From the NCBI RefSeq assembly GCF_003018255.1, contig NZ_CP027440.1: a DNA stretch of 64,000 nucleotides; one strand, written 5' to 3'. The position numbers and the translations under genes were made by a program. This document shows positions 1,518-30,443 of the stretch, piece after piece. Source of the DNA: Escherichia coli (GTDB lineage Bacteria > Pseudomonadota > Gammaproteobacteria > Enterobacterales > Enterobacteriaceae). The notes beneath the pieces were generated by a model. That model ran no database searches. It saw only the letters and a list, made by a program, of their open reading frames with translations, and had not been told where the DNA came from. The first letter of the stretch is position 1. Every line of letters begins with the position of its first letter.

Positions 1518-2942
1518 TTACGGCTGATAATAACCCACGCCAAGGTCGTTTTCTTTGCGGGTACGGGCAATCACCGATTCCGGTGTTTCTGCCACGCGCA
1601 GACCCATTTCATCTTCAGTTCGCACCACTTTACCGCGCAGAGAGTTCGGGTAGACGTCGGTAATTTCTACATCGACGAATTTACCGATCATATCCGGCGT
1701 ACCTTCGAAGTTGACGACGCGGTTATTTTCAGTACGGCCGGAAAGCTCCATGATGCTCTTACGCGATGTACCTTCTACCAGAATACGCTGGGTGGTACCG
1801 AGCATCCGGCGGCTCCATGCCATTGCTTGCTGATTGATACGTTCTTGTAGAATATACAGGCGCTGCTTCTTCTCTTCTTCCGGAACATCATCAACCATAT
1901 CGGCGGCTGGTGTACCTGGACGAGCGGAGAAGATAAAGCTGTAGCTCATGTCGAAATTGACGTCGGCAATCAGCTTCATCGTTTTCTCGAAGTCTTCGGT
2001 GGTTTCGCCAGGGAAGCCAACGATGAAGTCAGAACTGATCTGAATATCCGGACGCGCCGCACGCAGCTTACGGATGATCGCTTTGTACTCCAGCGCTGTA
2101 TGGGTACGTCCCATCAGGTTCAGAATGCGATCGGAACCGCTCTGTACCGGCAGATGCAGGAAGCTCACCAGCTCCGGCGTGTCGCGGTACACTTCGATGA
2201 TATCGTCGGTGAATTCGATCGGATGGCTGGTGGTAAAGCGAATACGATCGATCCCGTCGATCGCCGCAACCAGACGCAGCAGATCGGCAAACGATCCGGT
2301 GGTGCCGTCGTAGTTCTCACCGCGCCAGGCGTTCACGTTCTGGCCGAGCAGGTTAACTTCACGCACGCCCTGAGCAGCAAGCTGGGCAATCTCAAACAGA
2401 ATATCGTCGGACGGACGGCTTACCTCTTCACCACGGGTGTAAGGCACTACGCAGTAGGTGCAATATTTATTGCAGCCTTCCATGATGGAGACAAACGCGG
2501 TCGGCCCTTCGGCGCGCGGTTCCGGCAGACGGTCAAACTTCTCGATTTCCGGGAAGCTGATATCTACAACCGGGCTGCGGTCGCCGCGCACGGAGTTGAT
2601 CATCTCCGGCAGACGGTGCAGCGTTTGCGGCCCAAAAATAATATCGACATAGTGGGCGCGCTGGCGAATGTGCTCGCCTTCTTGCGATGCCACGCAGCCG
2701 CCGACGCCGATAATCAGGTCTGGATTCTTCTCTTTTAACAGTTTCCAGCGACCCAACTGATGGAAGACTTTTTCCTGAGCCTTCTCGCGGATTGAGCAGG
2801 TGTTCAGCAGCAGCACATCCGCTTCTTCCGCCACGTCGGTCAGTTGATAGCCGTGGGTGGCATCCAGCAGATCGGCCATCTTCGATGAATCGTACTCGTT
2901 CATCTGACAGCCCCAGGTTTTAATATGGAGTTTTTTGGTCAT
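1518..2942 (-). CDS. miaB: tRNA-i6A37 methylthiotransferase MiaB
   Basis: 474-aa ORF beginning [19 protein letters not shown], radical-SAM family, ATG confirmed at 2942. Confidence 0.95.
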
Positions 2943-21277: not shown

Positions 21278-22918
21278 ATGGCAATCCACAATCGTGCAGG
21301 CCAACCTGCACAACAGAGTGATTTGATTAACGTCGCCCAACTGACGGCGCAATATTATGTACTGAAACCAGAAGCAGGGAATGCGGAGCACGCGGTGAAA
21401 TTCGGTACTTCCGGTCACCGTGGCAGTGCAGCGCGCCACAGCTTTAACGAGCCGCACATTCTGGCGATCGCTCAGGCAATTGCTGAAGAACGTGCGAAAA
21501 ACGGCATCACTGGCCCTTGCTATGTGGGTAAAGATACTCACGCCCTGTCCGAGCCTGCGTTCATTTCCGTACTGGAAGTGCTGGCAGCGAACGGCGTTGA
21601 TGTCATTGTGCAGGAAAACAATGGCTTCACTCCGACACCTGCCATTTCCAATGCCATTCTGGTTCACAATAAAAAAGGTGGCCCACTGGCAGACGGTATC
21701 GTGATTACACCGTCCCATAACCCGCCGGAAGATGGTGGTATCAAGTACAATCCGCCAAATGGTGGCCCGGCTGATACCAACGTCACTAAAGTGGTGGAAG
21801 ACAGAGCCAACGCACTGCTGGCTGATGGCCTGAAAGGCGTGAAGCGTATCTCCCTCGACGAAGCGATGGCATCCGGTCATGTGAAAGAGCAGGATCTGGT
21901 GCAGCCGTTTGTGGAAGGGCTGGCCGATATCGTTGATATGGCGGCGATTCAGAAAGCGGGCCTGACGCTGGGCGTTGATCCGCTGGGTGGTTCCGGTATC
22001 GAATACTGGAAGCGCATTGGCGAGTATTACAACCTCAACCTGACCATCGTTAACGATCAGGTCGATCAAACCTTCCGCTTTATGCACCTCGATAAAGACG
22101 GTGCGATCCGTATGGACTGCTCCTCCGAGTGTGCGATGGCGGGCCTGCTGGCACTGCGTGATAAGTTCGATCTGGCGTTTGCTAACGACCCGGATTATGA
22201 CCGTCACGGTATCGTCACTCCGGCAGGTTTGATGAATCCGAACCACTACCTGGCGGTGGCGATCAACTACCTGTTCCAGCATCGTCCGCAGTGGGGCAAA
22301 GATGTTGCTGTCGGTAAAACGCTGGTTTCATCTGCGATGATCGACCGTGTGGTCAATGATTTGGGCCGTAAGCTGGTAGAAGTACCGGTAGGTTTCAAAT
22401 GGTTTGTTGATGGTTTGTTCGATGGCAGCTTCGGCTTTGGCGGCGAAGAGAGTGCAGGCGCTTCCTTCCTGCGTTTCGACGGCACGCCGTGGTCCACCGA
22501 TAAAGACGGTATCATTATGTGTCTGCTGGCGGCGGAAATCACCGCTGTCACCGGTAAGAACCCGCAGGAACACTATAACGAACTGGCAAAACGCTTTGGT
22601 GCGCCGAGCTATAACCGTTTGCAGGCAGCAGCGACTTCCGCACAAAAAGCGGCGTTGTCTAAGCTGTCTCCGGAAATGGTGAGCGCCAGCACCCTGGCAG
22701 GTGACCCGATCACCGCGCGTCTGACGGCGGCACCGGGTAATGGCGCTTCTATCGGCGGTCTGAAAGTGATGACTGACAACGGCTGGTTCGCCGCGCGTCC
22801 GTCAGGCACGGAAGACGCATATAAGATCTACTGCGAAAGCTTCCTTGGTGAAGAACATCGCAAGCAGATTGAGAAAGAAGCGGTTGAGATTGTTAGCGAA
22901 GTTCTGAAAAACGCGTAA
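21278..22918 (+). CDS. pgm: Phosphoglucomutase
   Basis: Track ORF 21227..22918 trimmed to the ATG at 21278: [27 protein letters not shown]...; TPSHNP active-site motif present. Confidence 0.93.
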
Positions 22919-22931
22919 ACATATCAAATAA

Positions 22932-22965
22932 GAAAAAGGGCGGTCGGAAGATCGCCCTTTTTTGC
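22932..22965. terminator. Bidirectional terminator between pgm (+) and potE (-)
   Basis: A5, GGGCG-gtcggaagat-CGCCC hairpin, then T7; it is the only element in the 56-bp pgm-potE spacer. Confidence 0.7.
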
Positions 22966-22974
22966 TTTGCTTAA

Positions 22975-24294
22975 TTAACCGTGTTTATTTTTCAGTTCAA
23001 AGCGTGGTGAGACCAGACCATACAGTGTCCAACCGAGGAAGGTCACGATGGAACCGTATAGCATGGCTTCTTCCCCGGATGAGTACAGCGCATAAAAGCT
23101 GTACATCGCGCCAACAAAAGCAACAAAGTTTGCAACTTTCGCTTTTGAGGGGGGCACATTAGCGACCTTCTGAATAATGACTAATGCCGCCATTGACAGA
23201 ATATACGGAATGATATTGGTCACCACGGCCAGGTTAACCAGCACGTTGAACTGACTGTTCAGCGACGGGCTAATGGTCATCAGTGATAATCCGCTCTGGA
23301 TGATGACAATGGTCAGCATTCCCTGTACTGGTGCATCGACTTTGCTCACACGGGAGAAAATTTTCGGGAAGTACCCTTCATCGGCAGAAGATTTAAACAC
23401 CTGGGCAATGGTGAACTGCCAGCCAAGCAGCGAACCGCAGCAGGACATCACCATCAGCGCCATAATGACTTTACCCACTTCCGGCGTGAACATCTGCGCG
23501 AAGGCCAGACCAAATGGTGCCGTTGAATTTGCCAGCTCCATATTTGGCACAATCCCGGCAATCACGTTGGTGGAGACGATATAAATCACCGCCGCACCTA
23601 ACGTACCGCCAAGAACTGCAATCGGCACGTTACGTTCCGGGTTTTCAACTACTTCGGCGTTGGCACAGGCTGACTCCAGACCGAGGAAAGCCCACAACGT
23701 CATGGCGATGGAAGAACCTACAGCGCTAAAGAACGGCACATGGTGCGGGTTCCATGAGTTAGCGTATAGCGTCGGGCTAAACCAGAACCAGCCGATAATG
23801 CACAGACCGACGACCGGAATAATGACCCCCCACACAGTAATGCTACTGATTTGCCCGGTAATGCGCGCACCACCAAAGTTAGCCACGGTACAAATCCACA
23901 GCACTCCGATGGTCGCAAGACCAATCTGCACTGGCGACAAACTCGCGCCGAGCAGTTCGGTGCCGTAACCAACCGCCGAAATAGCAATCGCGACGTTAGC
24001 AATCAGCAGCGAGACACCGTAGGTGTAGTTCGCCATAAAGTTCCCGGATTTACCGAAAGCATACTCCGCATAACCGCCCATACCGCCTGATTTACGGCTG
24101 AACATACCGCATTTTGCGAATGCCCATGCCAGTGCCATTGAGCCTACGGCTGTCACCAGCCAGGAGATAATTGAGATTGTCCCAACTTCGGCAAGCTTTG
24201 TCGGCAGCATGATGATACCGGAGCCCATCATGTTGACCATCGTCAGTATGGTTAACTGAACGACGCCCATCTTATTCGATTTAGCCTGACTCAT
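22975..24294 (-). CDS. potE: Putrescine/ornithine antiporter
   Basis: 439-aa APC-family transporter ORF MSQAKSNKMGVVQLTILTMVNMMGSGIIMLPTKLAEVG... Confidence 0.95.
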   Translation of the reverse strand: MSQAKSNKMGVVQLTILTMVNMMGSGIIMLPTKLAEVGTISIISWLVTAVGSMALAWAFAKCGMFSRKSGGMGGYAEYAFGKSGNFMANYTYGVSLLIANVAIAISAVGYGTELLGASLSPVQIGLATIGVLWICTVANFGGARITGQISSITVWGVIIPVVGLCIIGWFWFSPTLYANSWNPHHVPFFSAVGSSIAMTLWAFLGLESACANAEVVENPERNVPIAVLGGTLGAAVIYIVSTNVIAGIVPNMELANSTAPFGLAFAQMFTPEVGKVIMALMVMSCCGSLLGWQFTIAQVFKSSADEGYFPKIFSRVSKVDAPVQGMLTIVIIQSGLSLMTISPSLNSQFNVLVNLAVVTNIIPYILSMAALVIIQKVANVPPSKAKVANFVAFVGAMYSFYALYSSGEEAMLYGSIVTFLGWTLYGLVSPRFELKNKHG

Positions 24295-26489
24295 AATTTT
24301 TCCCCTTTCAACAGGGTGCTTTGCGCATCACGAGGCTTGATGACATAGCACCAAACTTGCTTACGACCATCATGTTCTTCGATATAGACACCCTGCAGCT
24401 CTGGTGCAAAACCTGGCAGCAGGTTGATCCCTTCTTCCAGAGCGCTGAAGTAACGCAGAACAGCACCACCCCAGATTTCACCCGGAACAACACACAGCAC
24501 ACCCGGAGGATAAGGAAGCGCACCTTCGGCAGCGATACGGCCTTCTGCATCCGGCAGACGAACCAGCTCCACTTCATCGCGTAAATAGGCGTAGTTGGCT
24601 TCTTGTGGATTCATGCTTACGCGTGGGAAGTGTTCCTTACGGAACATCTCTTTTTGCAGTTGTTTCACGTTGTGACGGGCATACAAATCATGCATTTCCT
24701 GACACAACTGACGCAGGGTATAACCGGTGTAGCGCTCTTCATGCTGTTTGTAGATGGAAGGCAGTACTTCTGATAATGGCGCGTCGGACTCAAGCAGTTT
24801 TTCGAAGCGTACCAGCAGAGCAACAAGTTGCTGAAGTTTGGCCATATCTTCTGCCGGAGTCAGCAGAAAGAGGATGGAGTTAAGATCGCATTTTTCCGGC
24901 ACTACGCCATTTTCGCGCAGGAAGTTAGCAAGAATCGTCGCGGGTACACCGAACGCTTCATATTCGCCGTTACGTGCATCAATACCTGGGGTTGTCAGCA
25001 ACAGTTTGCACGGATCGACAAAGTATTGATTCTCTGCATAGCCTTCAAAAGAATGCCAGTGCTCACCTGGTACAAACTGGAAGAAGCGCAGATCAACCGC
25101 AATTTGCGCCGTTTCATACGACTGCCAGGGTTTACCATCCACCAGTTCAGGTACGAATGGACGAATATGCTGACAGTTATCGAGGATTAGTTTGCGGGCA
25201 TTAATGCCATTTACCACACAATCCATCCACATATTACGACCGCTGACACCTTCATGCATTTTGGCGTTGATATCCAGTGCGGCAAACAGCGGATAGAACG
25301 GGCTGGTGGAGGCATGCATCATAAAGGCGTTGTTCATGCGTTTGTGCGGTACATAACGCTGTTGCCCTTTGATATGGCTGTCTTTTTTATGGATTTGTGA
25401 AGTCTGGGAAAAACCAGCCTGCTGTTTATGCACAGATTGCGTAACCAGAATACCCGGATCGTTCTCATTAAGATCCAGCAACAGTGGTGAACAGTCCGCC
25501 ATCATCGGGATAAACTGCTCATAGCCGACCCATGCGGAGTCAAAGAGGATGTAGTCACACAGATGACCAATTTTATCCACCACCTGACGGGCGTTATAAA
25601 TCGTACCGTCGTAAGTGCCTAGCTGAATAACGGCGAGGCGGAAAGGACGAGCCTCTTTTGCCCGCTGCGGTGCGAATTCCGCGATCAGTTCACGCAGGTA
25701 ACTTTCTTCAAAACAGTGAGCGTCAATACCACCGATAAAACCATACGGGTTACGTGCGGTTTCCAGATAAACCGGTGTCGCGCCAGCCTGTAGCAACGCT
25801 CCGTGGTGGTTAGATTTGTGGTTATTGCGGTCAAACAGCACCAGATCACCCGGTGTCAGCAGGGCGTTTAAAACCACTTTGTTAGAAGATGAAGTGCCAT
25901 TTAAAACGAAGTATGTTTTATCGGCATTAAACACTTTTGCCGCATGTTGCTGTGCAATGCATGGCGCGCCTTCGTGAATCAGCAGATCGCCCATCGCTAC
26001 GTCGGCGTTGCACAAGTCAGCACGGAACAGCGCCTCACCAAAGTATTCCACAAACTGATTCCCCGCGGGATGGCGACGGAAAAATTCGCCGCCCTGATGA
26101 CCGGGGCAATCAAACGCGCTGTTACCCTGATTGACATAATCGACCAGTGCGCGGAAGAAGGGCGGGCGCAGTTGCGTTTCATAATGGCTGGCTGCGGTTT
26201 CTAACTGACGACCATAAAATTCTCGTCGCGATTCGCAATTCTCAAAGACACCCGAAATACGGGGCAAATACTCTGCGGGTACACGTTCTTGATTTTCAGT
26301 AGCAATAAATACCGGGATGCCATAACCCGTGGCATCGATTTCATCGAGTTTTCCGCGTGTAACATCGTTGAGCGATAAAACTATTGCCGCCACATCGATA
26401 TTACTGTTTTCATTAATATAGATACATTCTCGCTGCGTGGTAAAACAGTCCGGGCAAGAATCACTAACCGCAATTTTTAATTTTGACAT
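24291..26489 (-). CDS. speF: Inducible ornithine decarboxylase
   Basis: Track ORF 24291..26567 trimmed to the ATG at 26489: MSKLKIAVSDSCPDCFTTQRECIYINENSNIDVAAIV..., 732 aa; its stop overlaps the potE start (ATGA). Confidence 0.93.
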   Translation of the reverse strand: MSKLKIAVSDSCPDCFTTQRECIYINENSNIDVAAIVLSLNDVTRGKLDEIDATGYGIPVFIATENQERVPAEYLPRISGVFENCESRREFYGRQLETAASHYETQLRPPFFRALVDYVNQGNSAFDCPGHQGGEFFRRHPAGNQFVEYFGEALFRADLCNADVAMGDLLIHEGAPCIAQQHAAKVFNADKTYFVLNGTSSSNKVVLNALLTPGDLVLFDRNNHKSNHHGALLQAGATPVYLETARNPYGFIGGIDAHCFEESYLRELIAEFAPQRAKEARPFRLAVIQLGTYDGTIYNARQVVDKIGHLCDYILFDSAWVGYEQFIPMMADCSPLLLDLNENDPGILVTQSVHKQQAGFSQTSQIHKKDSHIKGQQRYVPHKRMNNAFMMHASTSPFYPLFAALDINAKMHEGVSGRNMWMDCVVNGINARKLILDNCQHIRPFVPELVDGKPWQSYETAQIAVDLRFFQFVPGEHWHSFEGYAENQYFVDPCKLLLTTPGIDARNGEYEAFGVPATILANFLRENGVVPEKCDLNSILFLLTPAEDMAKLQQLVALLVRFEKLLESDAPLSEVLPSIYKQHEERYTGYTLRQLCQEMHDLYARHNVKQLQKEMFRKEHFPRVSMNPQEANYAYLRDEVELVRLPDAEGRIAAEGALPYPPGVLCVVPGEIWGGAVLRYFSALEEGINLLPGFAPELQGVYIEEHDGRKQVWCYVIKPRDAQSTLLKGEKL

Positions 26490-26746
26490 TTTCCATCTCT
26501 TTATTTTGGGTAATAGCAGGTCCTCAATTTCTCGAATGAGAAATCGATCGTGCCGGAAAAAAAGCAAAGTTACCCCGCTGATAAATTAATCAGAAGTTTG
26601 CTTTTTTCAGAATGCAGAAACCCTTATCAGTCCGGTGGCTGATAATACAAGGGTTAACAGAGAATGAGCACTGCGGAATACAGGCATATGCCTGTAATAC
26701 AGAGAGTCAGGAAGACCTGTACGCTGAAGTGCCCTTAGTCGGTAGA

Positions 26747-26851
26747 CTAACGGGCATTGAAGAAGTGAAAGTCGAAGCTATTGCGATGAGCAAACTTCAT
26801 AATATGAGTTGTCCGCCTTATATGGGGCATAGTGCGGCTGTTATTTTCCAT
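26747..26851 (-). CDS. speFL: speF leader peptide SpeFL (34 aa, ornithine-sensing arrest peptide)
   Basis: Hand translation of the minus strand from ATG 26851 gives MENNSRTMPHIRRTTHIMKFAHRNSFDFHFFNAR followed by TAG, about 260 nt upstream of speF and absent from the ORF track because it is under 60 aa. Confidence 0.8.
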   Translation of the reverse strand: MENNSRTMPHIRRTTHIMKFAHRNSFDFHFFNAR

Positions 26852-27021
26852 TTAATTTACCTTTCCTGATGTGAATGAAGGTGAAGGTATTCTATCCAGG
26901 AAATACGGTTGAACTGTGAAGGTGATCAATAAAAAATGATCAATCTTAATTTATTTAATGATGAGCTTTTTACTCAGTAATATAAAATATTGAATTGTTA
27001 TTTTTGTGTGTTGTTTAAGAT

Positions 27022-27050
27022 AAAAAGCCGTATTTATTATTACGGCTTTA
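27022..27050. terminator. Terminator downstream of kdpE (end of the kdpFABCDE operon)
   Basis: A5, GCCGTA-tttattat-TACGGC hairpin, then TTTA; it sits 35 bp after the kdpE stop. Confidence 0.6.
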
Positions 27051-27084
27051 ATTAATAAAAGGCAGGATGTATTGAAATTAATAT

Positions 27085-27762
27085 TCAAAGCATAAACCGA
27101 TACCCAATACCGGTTTCAGTAATGAAATGGCGAGGCCGGGCCGGGTCCTGTTCCAGTTTTTGTCGCAGATGCCCCATATAAATACGCAAATAATGACTGT
27201 GTTCGACCGCGTTTGGCCCCCACACCTGGTTAAGGAGCTGGCGCTGGGTGAGCACTTTTCCCGCATTATTAAGCAACACTGCCAGCAGGCGGAACTCAAT
27301 CGGGGTGAGATGCACCTCTTCCTCGCCCCGATGGATCACACGAGCTGCTAAATCGACGGTAACATCGGAAAATTTCACCAGCGGATCGGGCGCGGCGGTG
27401 GCGGAGTGGCGACGTAAAGCGACGCGCAGACGGGCCTGCAATTCGCCAATGCCAAACGGCTTACTCAGATAATCATCCGCTCCGGCATCCAGCGCGGCGA
27501 TTTTGTCGCTCTCTTCGCTACGTGCGGAAAGCACAATCACCGGCACCGCGCTCCACTGGCGCAGGTCGCGGATAAACTCAATCCCATCACCATCGGGCAG
27601 GCCGAGATCGAGAATAATCAAATCTGGCTTACGGGTAGCCGCTTCCAGCAAGCCGCGTTGCAGCGTTTCGGCCTCAAAGACGCGCATACCGTCGCCTTCC
27701 AGCGCCGTGCGCAGAAAGCGACGAATAGCCTGTTCATCTTCAACAATCAGAACGTTTGTCAC
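27085..27762 (-). CDS. kdpE: Two-component response regulator KdpE (OmpR family)
   Basis: 225-aa ORF (M)[30 protein letters not shown]...; the start is GTG at 27762, overlapping the kdpD stop (GTGA). Confidence 0.93.
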   Translation of the reverse strand: MTNVLIVEDEQAIRRFLRTALEGDGMRVFEAETLQRGLLEAATRKPDLIILDLGLPDGDGIEFIRDLRQWSAVPVIVLSARSEESDKIAALDAGADDYLSKPFGIGELQARLRVALRRHSATAAPDPLVKFSDVTVDLAARVIHRGEEEVHLTPIEFRLLAVLLNNAGKVLTQRQLLNQVWGPNAVEHSHYLRIYMGHLRQKLEQDPARPRHFITETGIGYRFML

Positions 27763-30443
27763 ATATCCTCATGAAATTCTTCAAGTTCAGGAGCGGTTTG
27801 CTGGGGAAGTGTAACACGAAAACAGGCACCACCTTCCGGTCGGTTGAACGCGGTAATGGTGCCGCCGTGTACATCCACAATCGCCCGACAAATTGCCAGC
27901 CCAAGCCCTACACCCGGTACCGCCGACTCTTTATTCCCGCGAGCAAACTTATCAAATATCGTCTGCTCCTGGCCTGGCGGAAGACCGGGGCCGTTATCCC
28001 AGACATCCAGTTGTAGCTTCTCGCCCTCAACGTGGGCATCGATACCAATTTCGGCCTGCGCACCCGCGTATTTCACCGCGTTCTCCAGCAGATTAATCAG
28101 CACCCGTTCAAAGAGCGGCCCGTCAACGTGGATTAAGGTCAGCGGTTCTGGCAGAGAAAGATTGATAGGCGACGATAAACCCGGTTCCAGCATTTGCAGC
28201 GCGCTGCCGACCACTTCTTCCAGCGTTAACCACTCTTTCTTCAAATTAAAGCCGCCGGACTGAATTCGCGCCATATCGAGCAGATTATTCACCAGTCGGG
28301 TCGTGTTCAGCACATGCTGACGAATCTCGCTGGCCTGGCGGGCGTGGGGCGATCCTTCGCTTGCCAGATCGAGCGTTAAGATTTCTGCCTGACCGAACAG
28401 CACCGTGAGCGGCGTGCGTAAATCATGCGAAAGCGCCGCCAGCAGAGCGTTGCGGATCTGTTCACGTTCGCTTGCCATCCGCGCCTGTTCTTCGCTGGCG
28501 GTCAGCGTCAGCCGCTCAAGCGCATTGGCGACTAACAGCGTAAACGTCTCCAGCAGGCGCTGCTGTTCCGGGATCATCAACTGGCGCAGATTCCCCGGTT
28601 CCACCACCACCAGTCCGTAGGTTTTCTCGCCGCTTTTTAGCGGCAAAATCTGGTACGGTACACCGGGTAACGTGTCGGTGCCCGCGCCCGCAGGCAGACC
28701 TTTATCAAAACTCCACTGCGCGATGGCATCGTCCCACGGCGTCATTCCTTGCGGATGTGTTAACGGCTGCAATTTACCGTTGTCATCAGGCAGCAACACC
28801 TGGCTACGGGCATGAAACGTGGAGGCAATAAACTGTTCGCTGGTGGCGGCGATATCCTGCGAACTGCGGCCCACAGCCAGAGCTTTGGACATTTCATATA
28901 AGTGCCGTGTGCGTTGTTCGCGGTAACGGGCTACCCGCGCCTGATAACGCACGCCAGCAGTAAGGTTCCCGATCACCAGCCCGACGGTTAACATCACCGC
29001 GAAGGTCAGCAGATATTGCACATCAGAGACGGCGAGCGTGCCGCGTGGGGCGATAAAAAAGAGATCGAAACTCACCACATTAATGACGGTAGCAACCACC
29101 GAAGGCCAGCGTCCATAAAATAGCGCCACCACCACCACGCCAAGTAGATACAGCATCACCAGGTTGGCGGCATCAAACGCCATCAGCCACTGCATGGCAA
29201 TTAAGGTGATAACGGCGCATAACGCGGCGGCAACCACGCATCCCTGAATCTGTACCCGCCACTTGTCTTTAAAAGAGCGGCTATCCGGCGCGTTGTTAAT
29301 CGTGCGGGCGGGTGGTTCATCAAGCGCGACCAGCACCTGATCGAGATCGGGGGCGATGCGCGCCAGTCGGTCAGCAAACGTTTCCCGACGCCACCAGCGG
29401 CGCGAGGCTGGGCGACCGAGAATAATCTTGCCGAGATTATGCTCACGGGCGTAACGCACTACCGCTTTCTCTTCCGCTGGATTAGAAAGTGTTGCCGTCT
29501 CCGCGCCCAGCTCCTGCGCCAGACGTAAGGCGCTGAGAATTGCCCGACGTTTTTTCTCCGGTAAGCGATGCAGGGCAGGGGTTTCAACATACACCGCGTG
29601 CCAGACGCTACCCAGCCGTGACGCCAGCCGCGCCGCCGCGCGGACCAGTTTCTCACTACCAGTGTTATGGCCGATGCATAAAAGGATCGCGTCGCGCGTG
29701 TGCCAGACTTTCTCTTCGCCAGGATGCCCCCGCCAGGCGCGCATTTGCTCATCTACGCGATCGGCAGTACGGCGCAGTGCCAGTTCGCGCAGGGCGATCA
29801 GATTGCCTTTGCGGAAAAAATGTTCAATGGCGCGCTCCGCCTGCCCGGCAATATAGACTTTGCCTTCTTTCAGTCGCTGGCGCAGATCGTCCGGGGGCAA
29901 GTCCACCAGCACTACGTCGTCGGCGGCATCAAAAAAAGGATCGGGCACGGTTTCCCGAACCTGAATTCCGGTGACGCCGCTGACCACATCATTCAGGCTT
30001 TCCAGATGTTGAACGTTGACGGTAGTGAAAACATCAATGCCAGCTTCCAGCAGCTCTTCGATGTCCTGCCAGCGTTTGGGATGACGAGAACCTGGCGCAT
30101 TACTGTGCGCCAGTTCGTCCATTAAGATCAGTGCCGGACGGCGGGCGAGGGCGGCATCGAGATCAAACTCGCTGATGTGCCGCCCACGGTACGCCTGGCG
30201 TTTTAACGGCAGAACAGCCAGCCCTTCCAGCATTGCGGCGGTATCTTTCCGCCCGTGGGTTTCTACCACGCCAACCACAATATCCAGCCCTTGCGCCCGC
30301 AGTCGCTGGGCTTCTGCCAGCATTGCCCAGGTCTTGCCGACGCCTGCGCAGGCACCGAAGAAAACTTTCAGCTTCCCCCGATGCGGCGCGGCAGTTTGTT
30401 CCAGCAGACGATCGGGGTCGGGACGTAAGGGTTCGTTATTCAT
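27759..30443 (-). CDS. kdpD: Sensor histidine kinase KdpD
   Basis: Track ORF 27759..30476 trimmed to the ATG at 30443: [38 protein letters not shown]..., 894 aa. Confidence 0.93.

Follow-up and report, generated by a model that had tools for sequence, protein, structure and literature searches.

Two open reading frames (ORFs) occupy the same DNA upstream of speF in Escherichia coli, one on each strand, and the locus raises the question of which of them is a gene. In the 64-kb stretch of E. coli DNA analyzed here (hereafter the window, 64,000 nucleotides), a frame of 34 codons on the minus strand lies antisense inside a frame of 85 codons on the plus strand. We are almost certain that the minus-strand frame is SpeFL, the ornithine-sensing arrest leader of speF-potE, and that the 85-codon plus-strand frame is not a gene. 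The speFL element has been described before, and current reference annotation has settled the conflict between the two frames. The present analysis covers the identity, position, conservation, codon pattern and hairpin covariation of the element. Stalling, the ligand pocket, the RF1 block and Rho dependence of this exact peptide have been shown experimentally by others.

Results

Organization of the speF leader locus

Both ORFs were confirmed where an earlier sequence-only reading had placed them, and the surrounding features of the window are as follows.

27759 onward, minus strand: kdpD
27085..27762, minus strand: kdpE
27024..27049, minus strand: terminator-like hairpin between kdpE and speFL
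26747..26851, minus strand: speFL coding sequence, with ATG start, 34 codons and TAG stop, encoding the peptide MENNSRTMPHIRRTTHIMKFAHRNSFDFHFFNAR
26612..26869, plus strand: 85-codon antisense ORF with ATG start, the historical ybfK, judged non-coding
26490..26746, minus strand: speFL-speF intergenic leader, 257 nt, structured RNA
24291..26489, minus strand: speF, inducible ornithine decarboxylase, the regulated gene (from the ORF and the PGAP annotation on a 100%-identical genome)
22975..24294, minus strand: potE, putrescine-ornithine antiporter, second gene of the operon

Read along the minus strand, the order is kdpD, kdpE, the terminator-like hairpin, speFL, the 257-nt spacer, speF and potE. 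The 34-codon frame lies on the same strand as speF-potE and 257 nt upstream of speF, which is the published speFL-speF distance in E. coli (10.1101/604074); the earlier argument that position and orientation favor the leader therefore holds. The plus-strand ORF spans the whole of speFL together with 135 nt of the speFL-speF leader, and the codons of the two frames are in exact antisense register (26851-26612 = 239 = 3x79+2).

The mere existence and length of the two frames are statistically unremarkable. Across the window, 138 ORFs reach 85 aa or more, and 62 of these are shadows that fall within longer ORFs; with a cut-off of 34 aa, the number rises to 562. What distinguishes the 34-codon ORF is its conservation and its identity to a characterized peptide, not its length.

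At the far end of the operon, potE follows pgm almost directly in the window (22918..22975). In K-12, this position is occupied by ybfP together with the pseudogenes ybfG and ybfI, all of which are absent downstream of potE in the window.

Identity of the minus-strand frame

The sequence-only reading had recognized the minus-strand frame as speFL, and each comparison of the sequence agreed with this. The window peptide is identical at 34/34 residues to the SpeFL chain of PDB entries 6TBV and 6TC3 (E=7.6e-20), and the coding DNA is identical to MG1655 b4803, annotated as "leader peptide SpeFL". The same name is given by PGAP/RefSeq to exactly this 34-codon ORF in E. coli genomes, including the one complete genome that matched a 651-bp query at 100%, and the exact-sequence protein cluster bears the name SPEFL_ECOLI. 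The sole Pfam match was PF10940 (SpeFL, formerly DUF2618), over residues 8-33, with a score of 23.8 bits (E=4e-5) that is marginally below the curated gathering cut-off of 25 bits for this 34-residue query. NCBIfam held no model matching either speFL or the plus-strand ORF. The sub-threshold Pfam score and the blank NCBIfam result probably reflect the statistics of short peptides, not doubt about identity.

Peptide domains and expression signals

The following elements were located in and upstream of speFL.

26889..26894, minus strand: predicted promoter -10 box TAGAAT, from cross-species alignment
26882, minus strand: predicted transcription start, an A, from which the speFL AUG would be at +32
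26860..26867, minus strand: Shine-Dalgarno sequence AGGAAAGG, 8 nt 5' of the speFL ATG
26804..26824, minus strand: HIRRXXH ornithine-recognition motif, codons 10-16, sensor domain, as read from the sequence
26813..26818, minus strand: consecutive rare arginine codons, R12 AGG and R13 CGG
26750..26812, minus strand: effector domain, codons 14-34 (F20, F26, F28, F30, F31, N32)

The motif residues in the window are H10, I11, R12, R13, T14, T15 and H16; the HIRRXXH motif functions in ornithine recognition, and the effector domain blocks RF1 upon compaction (10.1101/604074). F26, F28, F30, F31 and Asn32 are all present, and the stop codon directly follows residue 34. A purine-rich block is kept across genera at the position of the speFL Shine-Dalgarno sequence.

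The -10 hexamer is invariant as TA-AAT in the alignment of 14 taxa, and the AUG of Salmonella orf34 lies at +32 from a start mapped by primer extension (PMC6386406). From homology with the Salmonella start and from the cross-species alignment, we infer the placement of the speFL promoter and start in the window. A sigma-70 consensus scan of 26400..27150 reported no promoter for speFL; a simple scan of this kind missed it because its -35 element is poor.

Further upstream, a block of the form TGATC-N7-TTGATC followed by CTTCACAG (26914..26942, minus strand, 5' of the -10 box) has been conserved in genera ranging from Escherichia to Kluyvera and Yokenella. It is too far from the -10 box to be the -35 element and may be a binding site for a regulator, for example one for acid induction.

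Structure of the leader RNA

Three elements were placed around the end of speFL.

26730..26756, minus strand: RNA hairpin from the third base of Asn32 through Ala33, Arg34 and UAG to 17 nt downstream
26718..26807, minus strand: C-rich, G-poor tract (C/G 1.8-1.9), candidate rut site
26722..26733, minus strand: match to the pause consensus G-11 G-10 ... Y-1 G+1, as read from the sequence

The hairpin over the speFL stop appeared in both the MFE and the centroid folds, and it corresponds to the published RNA polymerase pause hairpin over the end of speFL (10.1101/604074). Counted on an explicit 11-pair structure, it is kept in 40 Enterobacteriaceae sequences, with 86.5% of cells paired versus 19-42% when the partner is slid. 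Four of its pairs show compensatory changes, one of which joins the wobble base of Asn32 and its partner. Enterobacter has its outer stem shifted by one base, and for this reason RNAalifold recovered only 7 of the pairs when given the MAFFT alignment.

The C-rich tract extends over the 3' half of speFL into the sequence that immediately follows it, and a rut site is known to overlap speFL (10.1101/604074); the boundaries given here for the window are predicted ones. The pause site is likewise a prediction from the consensus match. The predicted premature 3' end lies at 26723, ~160 nt from the predicted start, and the premature transcript in Salmonella is 157 nt (PMC6386406).

Over the 401-nt stretch 26480..26880, the fold z-score was -3.85 versus shuffled sequence. 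An Rfam scan of 24000..29000 returned two chance-level matches only, none on the speF leader. The leader also carries a terminator-like stem, AGCGGGG..CTTTGCT followed by seven Ts (26563..26579, minus strand), ~75 nt 5' of the speF ATG, which is retained with changes in the O157 allele described below.

Conservation of the speFL frame

We collected 80 loci encoding close SpeF relatives in other species, one genome per species, and located speFL orthologues upstream of speF by a regular expression of the form MENN...HIRRxxH.... The leader was found upstream in 75/80 speF loci, with exactly 34 codons in 70/75 and 35 codons in Morganella and Proteus. Among the 76 loci with potE downstream, 74 carried speFL by this search; the exceptions were L062, with a divergent ORF, and L074, truncated upstream. 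Three speF-like loci without speFL were also without potE and are probably speC-type paralogues.

Substitutions within the frame followed the codon. Site entropy, computed over 68 unique sequences of 34 codons, was 0.39 at first, 0.25 at second and 0.99 at third codon positions. The sequence-only reading had proposed a comparison of synonymous with non-synonymous change in the two overlapping frames as a check, and the outcome clearly favors the leader: pN/pS was 0.136 overall in the speFL frame (68 unique sequences) versus 1.25 in the ybfK frame. Among close relatives, a set in which speFL synonymous sites are near saturation, the speFL value was 0.067.

No variation was seen at H10, I11, R12, R13 or H16 among 69 unique orthologous coding sequences, an invariance that is partly built in, since the search expression required HIRRxxH. 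F26 and F28 are also invariant, and F31 and N32 are each present in 68/69. Arg12 is encoded only by rare codons in the 69 orthologues (AGG 52, CGA 12, CGG 3, AGA 2); the codons for R23 are mostly CGT or CGC, which are common ones.

Two variants were observed outside the main set. Yersinia proxima (L062 2277..2402) has a 41-aa SpeFL-like ORF that is extended at its C terminus and reads HIQRVIH, with Gln in place of Arg12. Aeromonas veronii (L081 ~2070..2155) has a MAHIRRIRH... variant without the MENN start. Both loci retain potE, and the variants may be degenerate sensors or sensors of altered specificity. In addition, a 2.2-kb contig from a Collinsella sp. MAG (L004, JAIJJM010000551.1) carries speFL and speF that are 99-100% identical to those of E. 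coli; this contig is most likely mis-binned.

Two alleles of the leader region in E. coli

Alleles were counted in 5426 complete E. coli genomes. At a coverage of at least 80%, the window/K-12 type was present in 1699 genomes and the O157:H7 type in 3318. A first megablast search had matched 1706/5426 genomes, as if the locus were often missing from E. coli; with longer and O157-type queries, most of the remaining genomes proved to have a diverged allele. The diverged regions are 26490..27084 in the window and 791..1479 in L084, the O157-type locus, and the kdpE-speFL part is nearly unalignable between the two alleles.

The O157-type speFL still has 34 codons and encodes MENNNRLMPHIRRTTHIMKFAHRNSFDFHFFNAR. 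It differs from the window speFL at 15/105 nt (14%), 12 of these at third positions, amounting to 11 synonymous and 2 non-synonymous codon changes. Read in the ybfK frame, the same 13 codon differences are all non-synonymous, and the TTA codon of Leu7 in the O157 type creates a stop; the ybfK-frame ORF of the O157 type has 45 codons only. Two deeply diverged leader alleles within one species provide a natural test of both frames, and this is the sole mildly new by-product of the study.

The O157-type leader also contains a 51-nt insertion (L084 946..1002, minus strand), absent from the window at ~26640/26641. With 26.4 bits versus a gathering score of 45, the insert gave a weak, partial match to Rfam isrH. 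Short copies of it occur at other places in E. coli genomes, and it probably represents a small dispersed repeat. On the O157-type locus, PGAP calls a 44-aa "hypothetical protein" over the speFL promoter (L084 1184..1318, minus strand). This ORF overlaps the speFL start by 22 nt and covers conserved promoter DNA, and it is probably spurious as well. In some E. coli strains, an IS1 copy interrupts the speF-kdpE spacer; with some insertion points, speF-potE could be released from regulation by SpeFL.

The plus-strand frame

The ORF of 85 codons is intact in the window, in K-12 and in other genomes of the same allele type. In the ybfK register, pN/pS was 1.25 overall and 2.19 in the close set, and a stop falls inside speFL in 27/68 unique sequences. 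The ORF in this register ranges from 12 to 127 aa in other species (70 aa in E. albertii, 37 aa in Salmonella, 22 aa in Enterobacter) and reaches 85 aa only in K-12-type E. coli. No Shine-Dalgarno sequence was found in the 25 nt upstream of the ybfK ATG, where the preceding sequence is GCTTTTTTCAGA; the sigma-70 scan of the plus strand over 26400..27150 gave no promoter-like site for ybfK, and searches of Pfam and NCBIfam gave no match to the ORF. The earlier expectation that only one of the two frames is likely real is borne out by the lack of purifying selection in the ybfK frame, set against a pN/pS of 0.136 for speFL.

Only three sense codons, TTA, CTA and TCA, read as stops on the antisense strand in this register. 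The K-12-type speFL contains none of these, which is why the antisense frame is open over the window speFL. The plus-strand ORF is open only through their absence and because the adjacent leader is by chance free of stops in that frame. We conclude that it is a chance shadow frame and not a gene: intactness across species, purifying selection, expression signals and membership of a protein family were each looked for, and none was found.

Annotation records were also compared. In a 2017 genomic SELEX table, "ybfK >" stands beside "< kdpE" at ~720060 in older K-12 coordinates. The plus-strand ORF lies at 720583..720840 in current K-12 coordinates. Converted to the updated K-12 sequence, ~720060 would fit the 3' end of this ORF, and the old ybfK entry was presumably also 85 aa long. 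On this footing, the sequence-only reading was right to equate the plus-strand ORF with the historical ybfK. A literature search on b4590 returned nothing relevant. The current MG1655 record and RefSeq contain speFL and no ybfK; the 85-aa ORF is called only as a "hypothetical protein" by some gene callers, and its cluster has 469 members.

Price et al. list YbfK among proteins that are expressed at <1 ppm yet important for fitness (10.1101/038851), a listing cited by later work. The effect attributed to YbfK in that transposon study was not separated from disruption of speFL or the leader. Because ybfK is not a gene, the phenotype should instead be attributed to speFL or to the leader of speF. 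The main text of the initiation-profiling preprint of Weaver et al. makes no mention of speF, ybfK or kdpE. A table in PMC7521043 lists YbfK without saying whether the protein was detected, and it was left out of the evidence.

Discussion

Our results identify the 34-codon frame of the window as a peptide whose mechanism has been established. Ornithine-dependent, puromycin-resistant toeprints were obtained at codons 33/34 for the identical peptide, and they were lost upon a double frameshift or mutation of H10, I11, R12, R13, H16 or the Phe core (10.1101/604074). A single L-ornithine is held in a pocket formed by 23S rRNA and the HIRRXXH hairpin, and Asn32 pushes U2585 into the space required by RF1. 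In the same study, induction of a speF reporter was constitutive with the Rho inhibitor bicyclomycin, and the rare Arg12/13 codons were required for tight repression. In Salmonella, start-codon (AUG-to-AAA) and premature-stop mutants of orf34 abolished speF transcription via Rho (PMC6386406).

The hairpin over the stop, the rare Arg12/13 codons and the C-rich tract are in keeping with the published account, in which ornithine stalls the ribosome and Rho termination is prevented. In the scheme proposed for the window, transcription would start ~31 nt upstream of the speFL AUG, and RNA polymerase would pause at the hairpin that contains the last speFL codons and the stop, until a ribosome translating speFL melts it. 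At low ornithine, the ribosome would terminate at UAG, and the rare Arg12/Arg13 codons would prevent ribosomes from piling up. The C-rich rut site overlapping speFL would then be exposed and Rho would terminate transcription ~160 nt from the start; speF-potE would therefore be off. At high ornithine, 23S rRNA and the HIRRXXH hairpin of the nascent chain would enclose one molecule between them, the peptide would compact in its Phe-rich C-terminal half, and Asn32 would displace U2585. RF1 would be unable to act, so that the ribosome would stall on the stop codon and others would queue behind it. The stalled and queued ribosomes would mask rut, and transcription would proceed into speF-potE.

We considered whether the main signal read by this leader is instead the supply of arginine, with pausing at the rare Arg12-Arg13 codons changing how the leader folds and its decay by RNase G. 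The window has the AGG-CGG pair, and the rare codon at position 12 is conserved; effects of arginine and RNase G have been shown for Salmonella orf34, whose translation also frees the speF ribosome-binding site (PMC6386406). However, the leader is 257 nt in E. coli versus ~379 nt in Salmonella, and because it is shorter, the long-range structure of Salmonella need not be conserved in E. coli. Moreover, structures and toeprints demonstrate direct and highly selective sensing of ornithine by the exact peptide (10.1101/604074), and the E. coli work explains the rare codons by rut exposure and folding of the sensor domain. We therefore regard arginine as an unlikely, if conceivable, main signal. 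The arginine/RNase G effect may be an additional layer of control in E. coli, not a replacement for ornithine sensing by SpeFL.

A second possibility is that both ORFs are real, ybfK being a young, lineage-restricted gene antisense to speFL in K-12-type E. coli. The intact 85-codon ATG ORF in the window, K-12 and other genomes of the same allele type is in line with this, as is the report that YbfK is weakly expressed yet important for fitness (10.1101/038851); if true, a young antisense ybfK would account for the transposon fitness signal. However, that signal is equally explained by transposon hits in speFL or the leader. The ybfK frame is under no purifying selection (pN/pS 1.25-2.19), and it is broken in E. 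albertii, Salmonella, Enterobacter and the more common E. coli allele. A Shine-Dalgarno sequence, a promoter-like site and a family match are all lacking, and ORFs of such length are common by chance, as the 138 of at least 85 aa in the window illustrate. The existence of two real genes here is thus very improbable. We find it just as hard to believe that ybfK is translated solely in the K-12-type allele, with every codon shared with an arrest peptide on the opposite strand.

That the conserved element acts as RNA alone, as a structured or riboswitch-like leader in which the 34-codon frame is incidental, has practically no chance of being correct: the leader folds better than shuffled sequence (z = -3.85), the stop-codon hairpin covaries, and Alphaproteobacteria have an RNA motif upstream of speF (PMC6386406), but the three-base periodicity of substitutions, the saturated synonymous sites, a pN/pS of 0.07-0.14, the ORF length and start codon that are invariant across genera and the lack of an Rfam family match all oppose it, as do the published double frameshift that abolishes stalling (10.1101/604074) and the AUG-to-AAA and premature-stop mutants that abolish speF expression (PMC6386406).

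Several known systems are close to this one. The K-12 SpeFL (b4803, 10.1101/604074) has the same peptide, coding DNA, UAG stop, AGG-CGG pair, 257-nt spacer and stop hairpin; the window shows no difference from K-12 in speFL and differs by ~1% over a 664-column alignment, at a few leader and promoter positions. Salmonella enterica orf34 (PMC6386406) is the orthologous 34-codon leader of speF-potE and likewise shows Rho-dependent premature termination just past a hairpin at the end of the ORF, with the AUG at +32. A few residues of its peptide differ; subspecies diarizonae and arizonae have MENNNRFMPHIRRTTHIMMFAHRNSFDFHFFNAR. Control by arginine and RNase G, as well as the helix sequestering the ribosome-binding site, have been demonstrated in Salmonella only, where the spacer is longer.

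TnaC, the leader of tnaCAB, resembles SpeFL in that it senses a free amino acid in the exit tunnel, blocks a release factor at the stop codon, masks rut and prevents Rho termination. In contrast to SpeFL, it has an unrelated sequence, a tryptophan ligand and another pocket, acts on RF2 at UGA and has no N-terminal sensor hairpin. The motif in the 5' UTR of alphaproteobacterial speF and the uORFs of eukaryotic ornithine decarboxylase are also cis-acting leader controls (PMC6386406); unlike SpeFL, they are an RNA motif and polyamine-responsive uORFs, respectively, and not a Rho-coupled, ornithine-binding arrest peptide.

This study also bears on annotation. The conflict between ybfK and speFL is an example of a short genuine ORF being displaced by a long one that is open by chance, and an 85-aa "hypothetical protein" persists in many GenBank submissions. 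Automatic six-frame tracks are untrustworthy at the speFL locus, and phenotypes or expression that older data sets assign to "ybfK" should be understood as hits in speFL or in the leader of speF. [quoted passage not shown]
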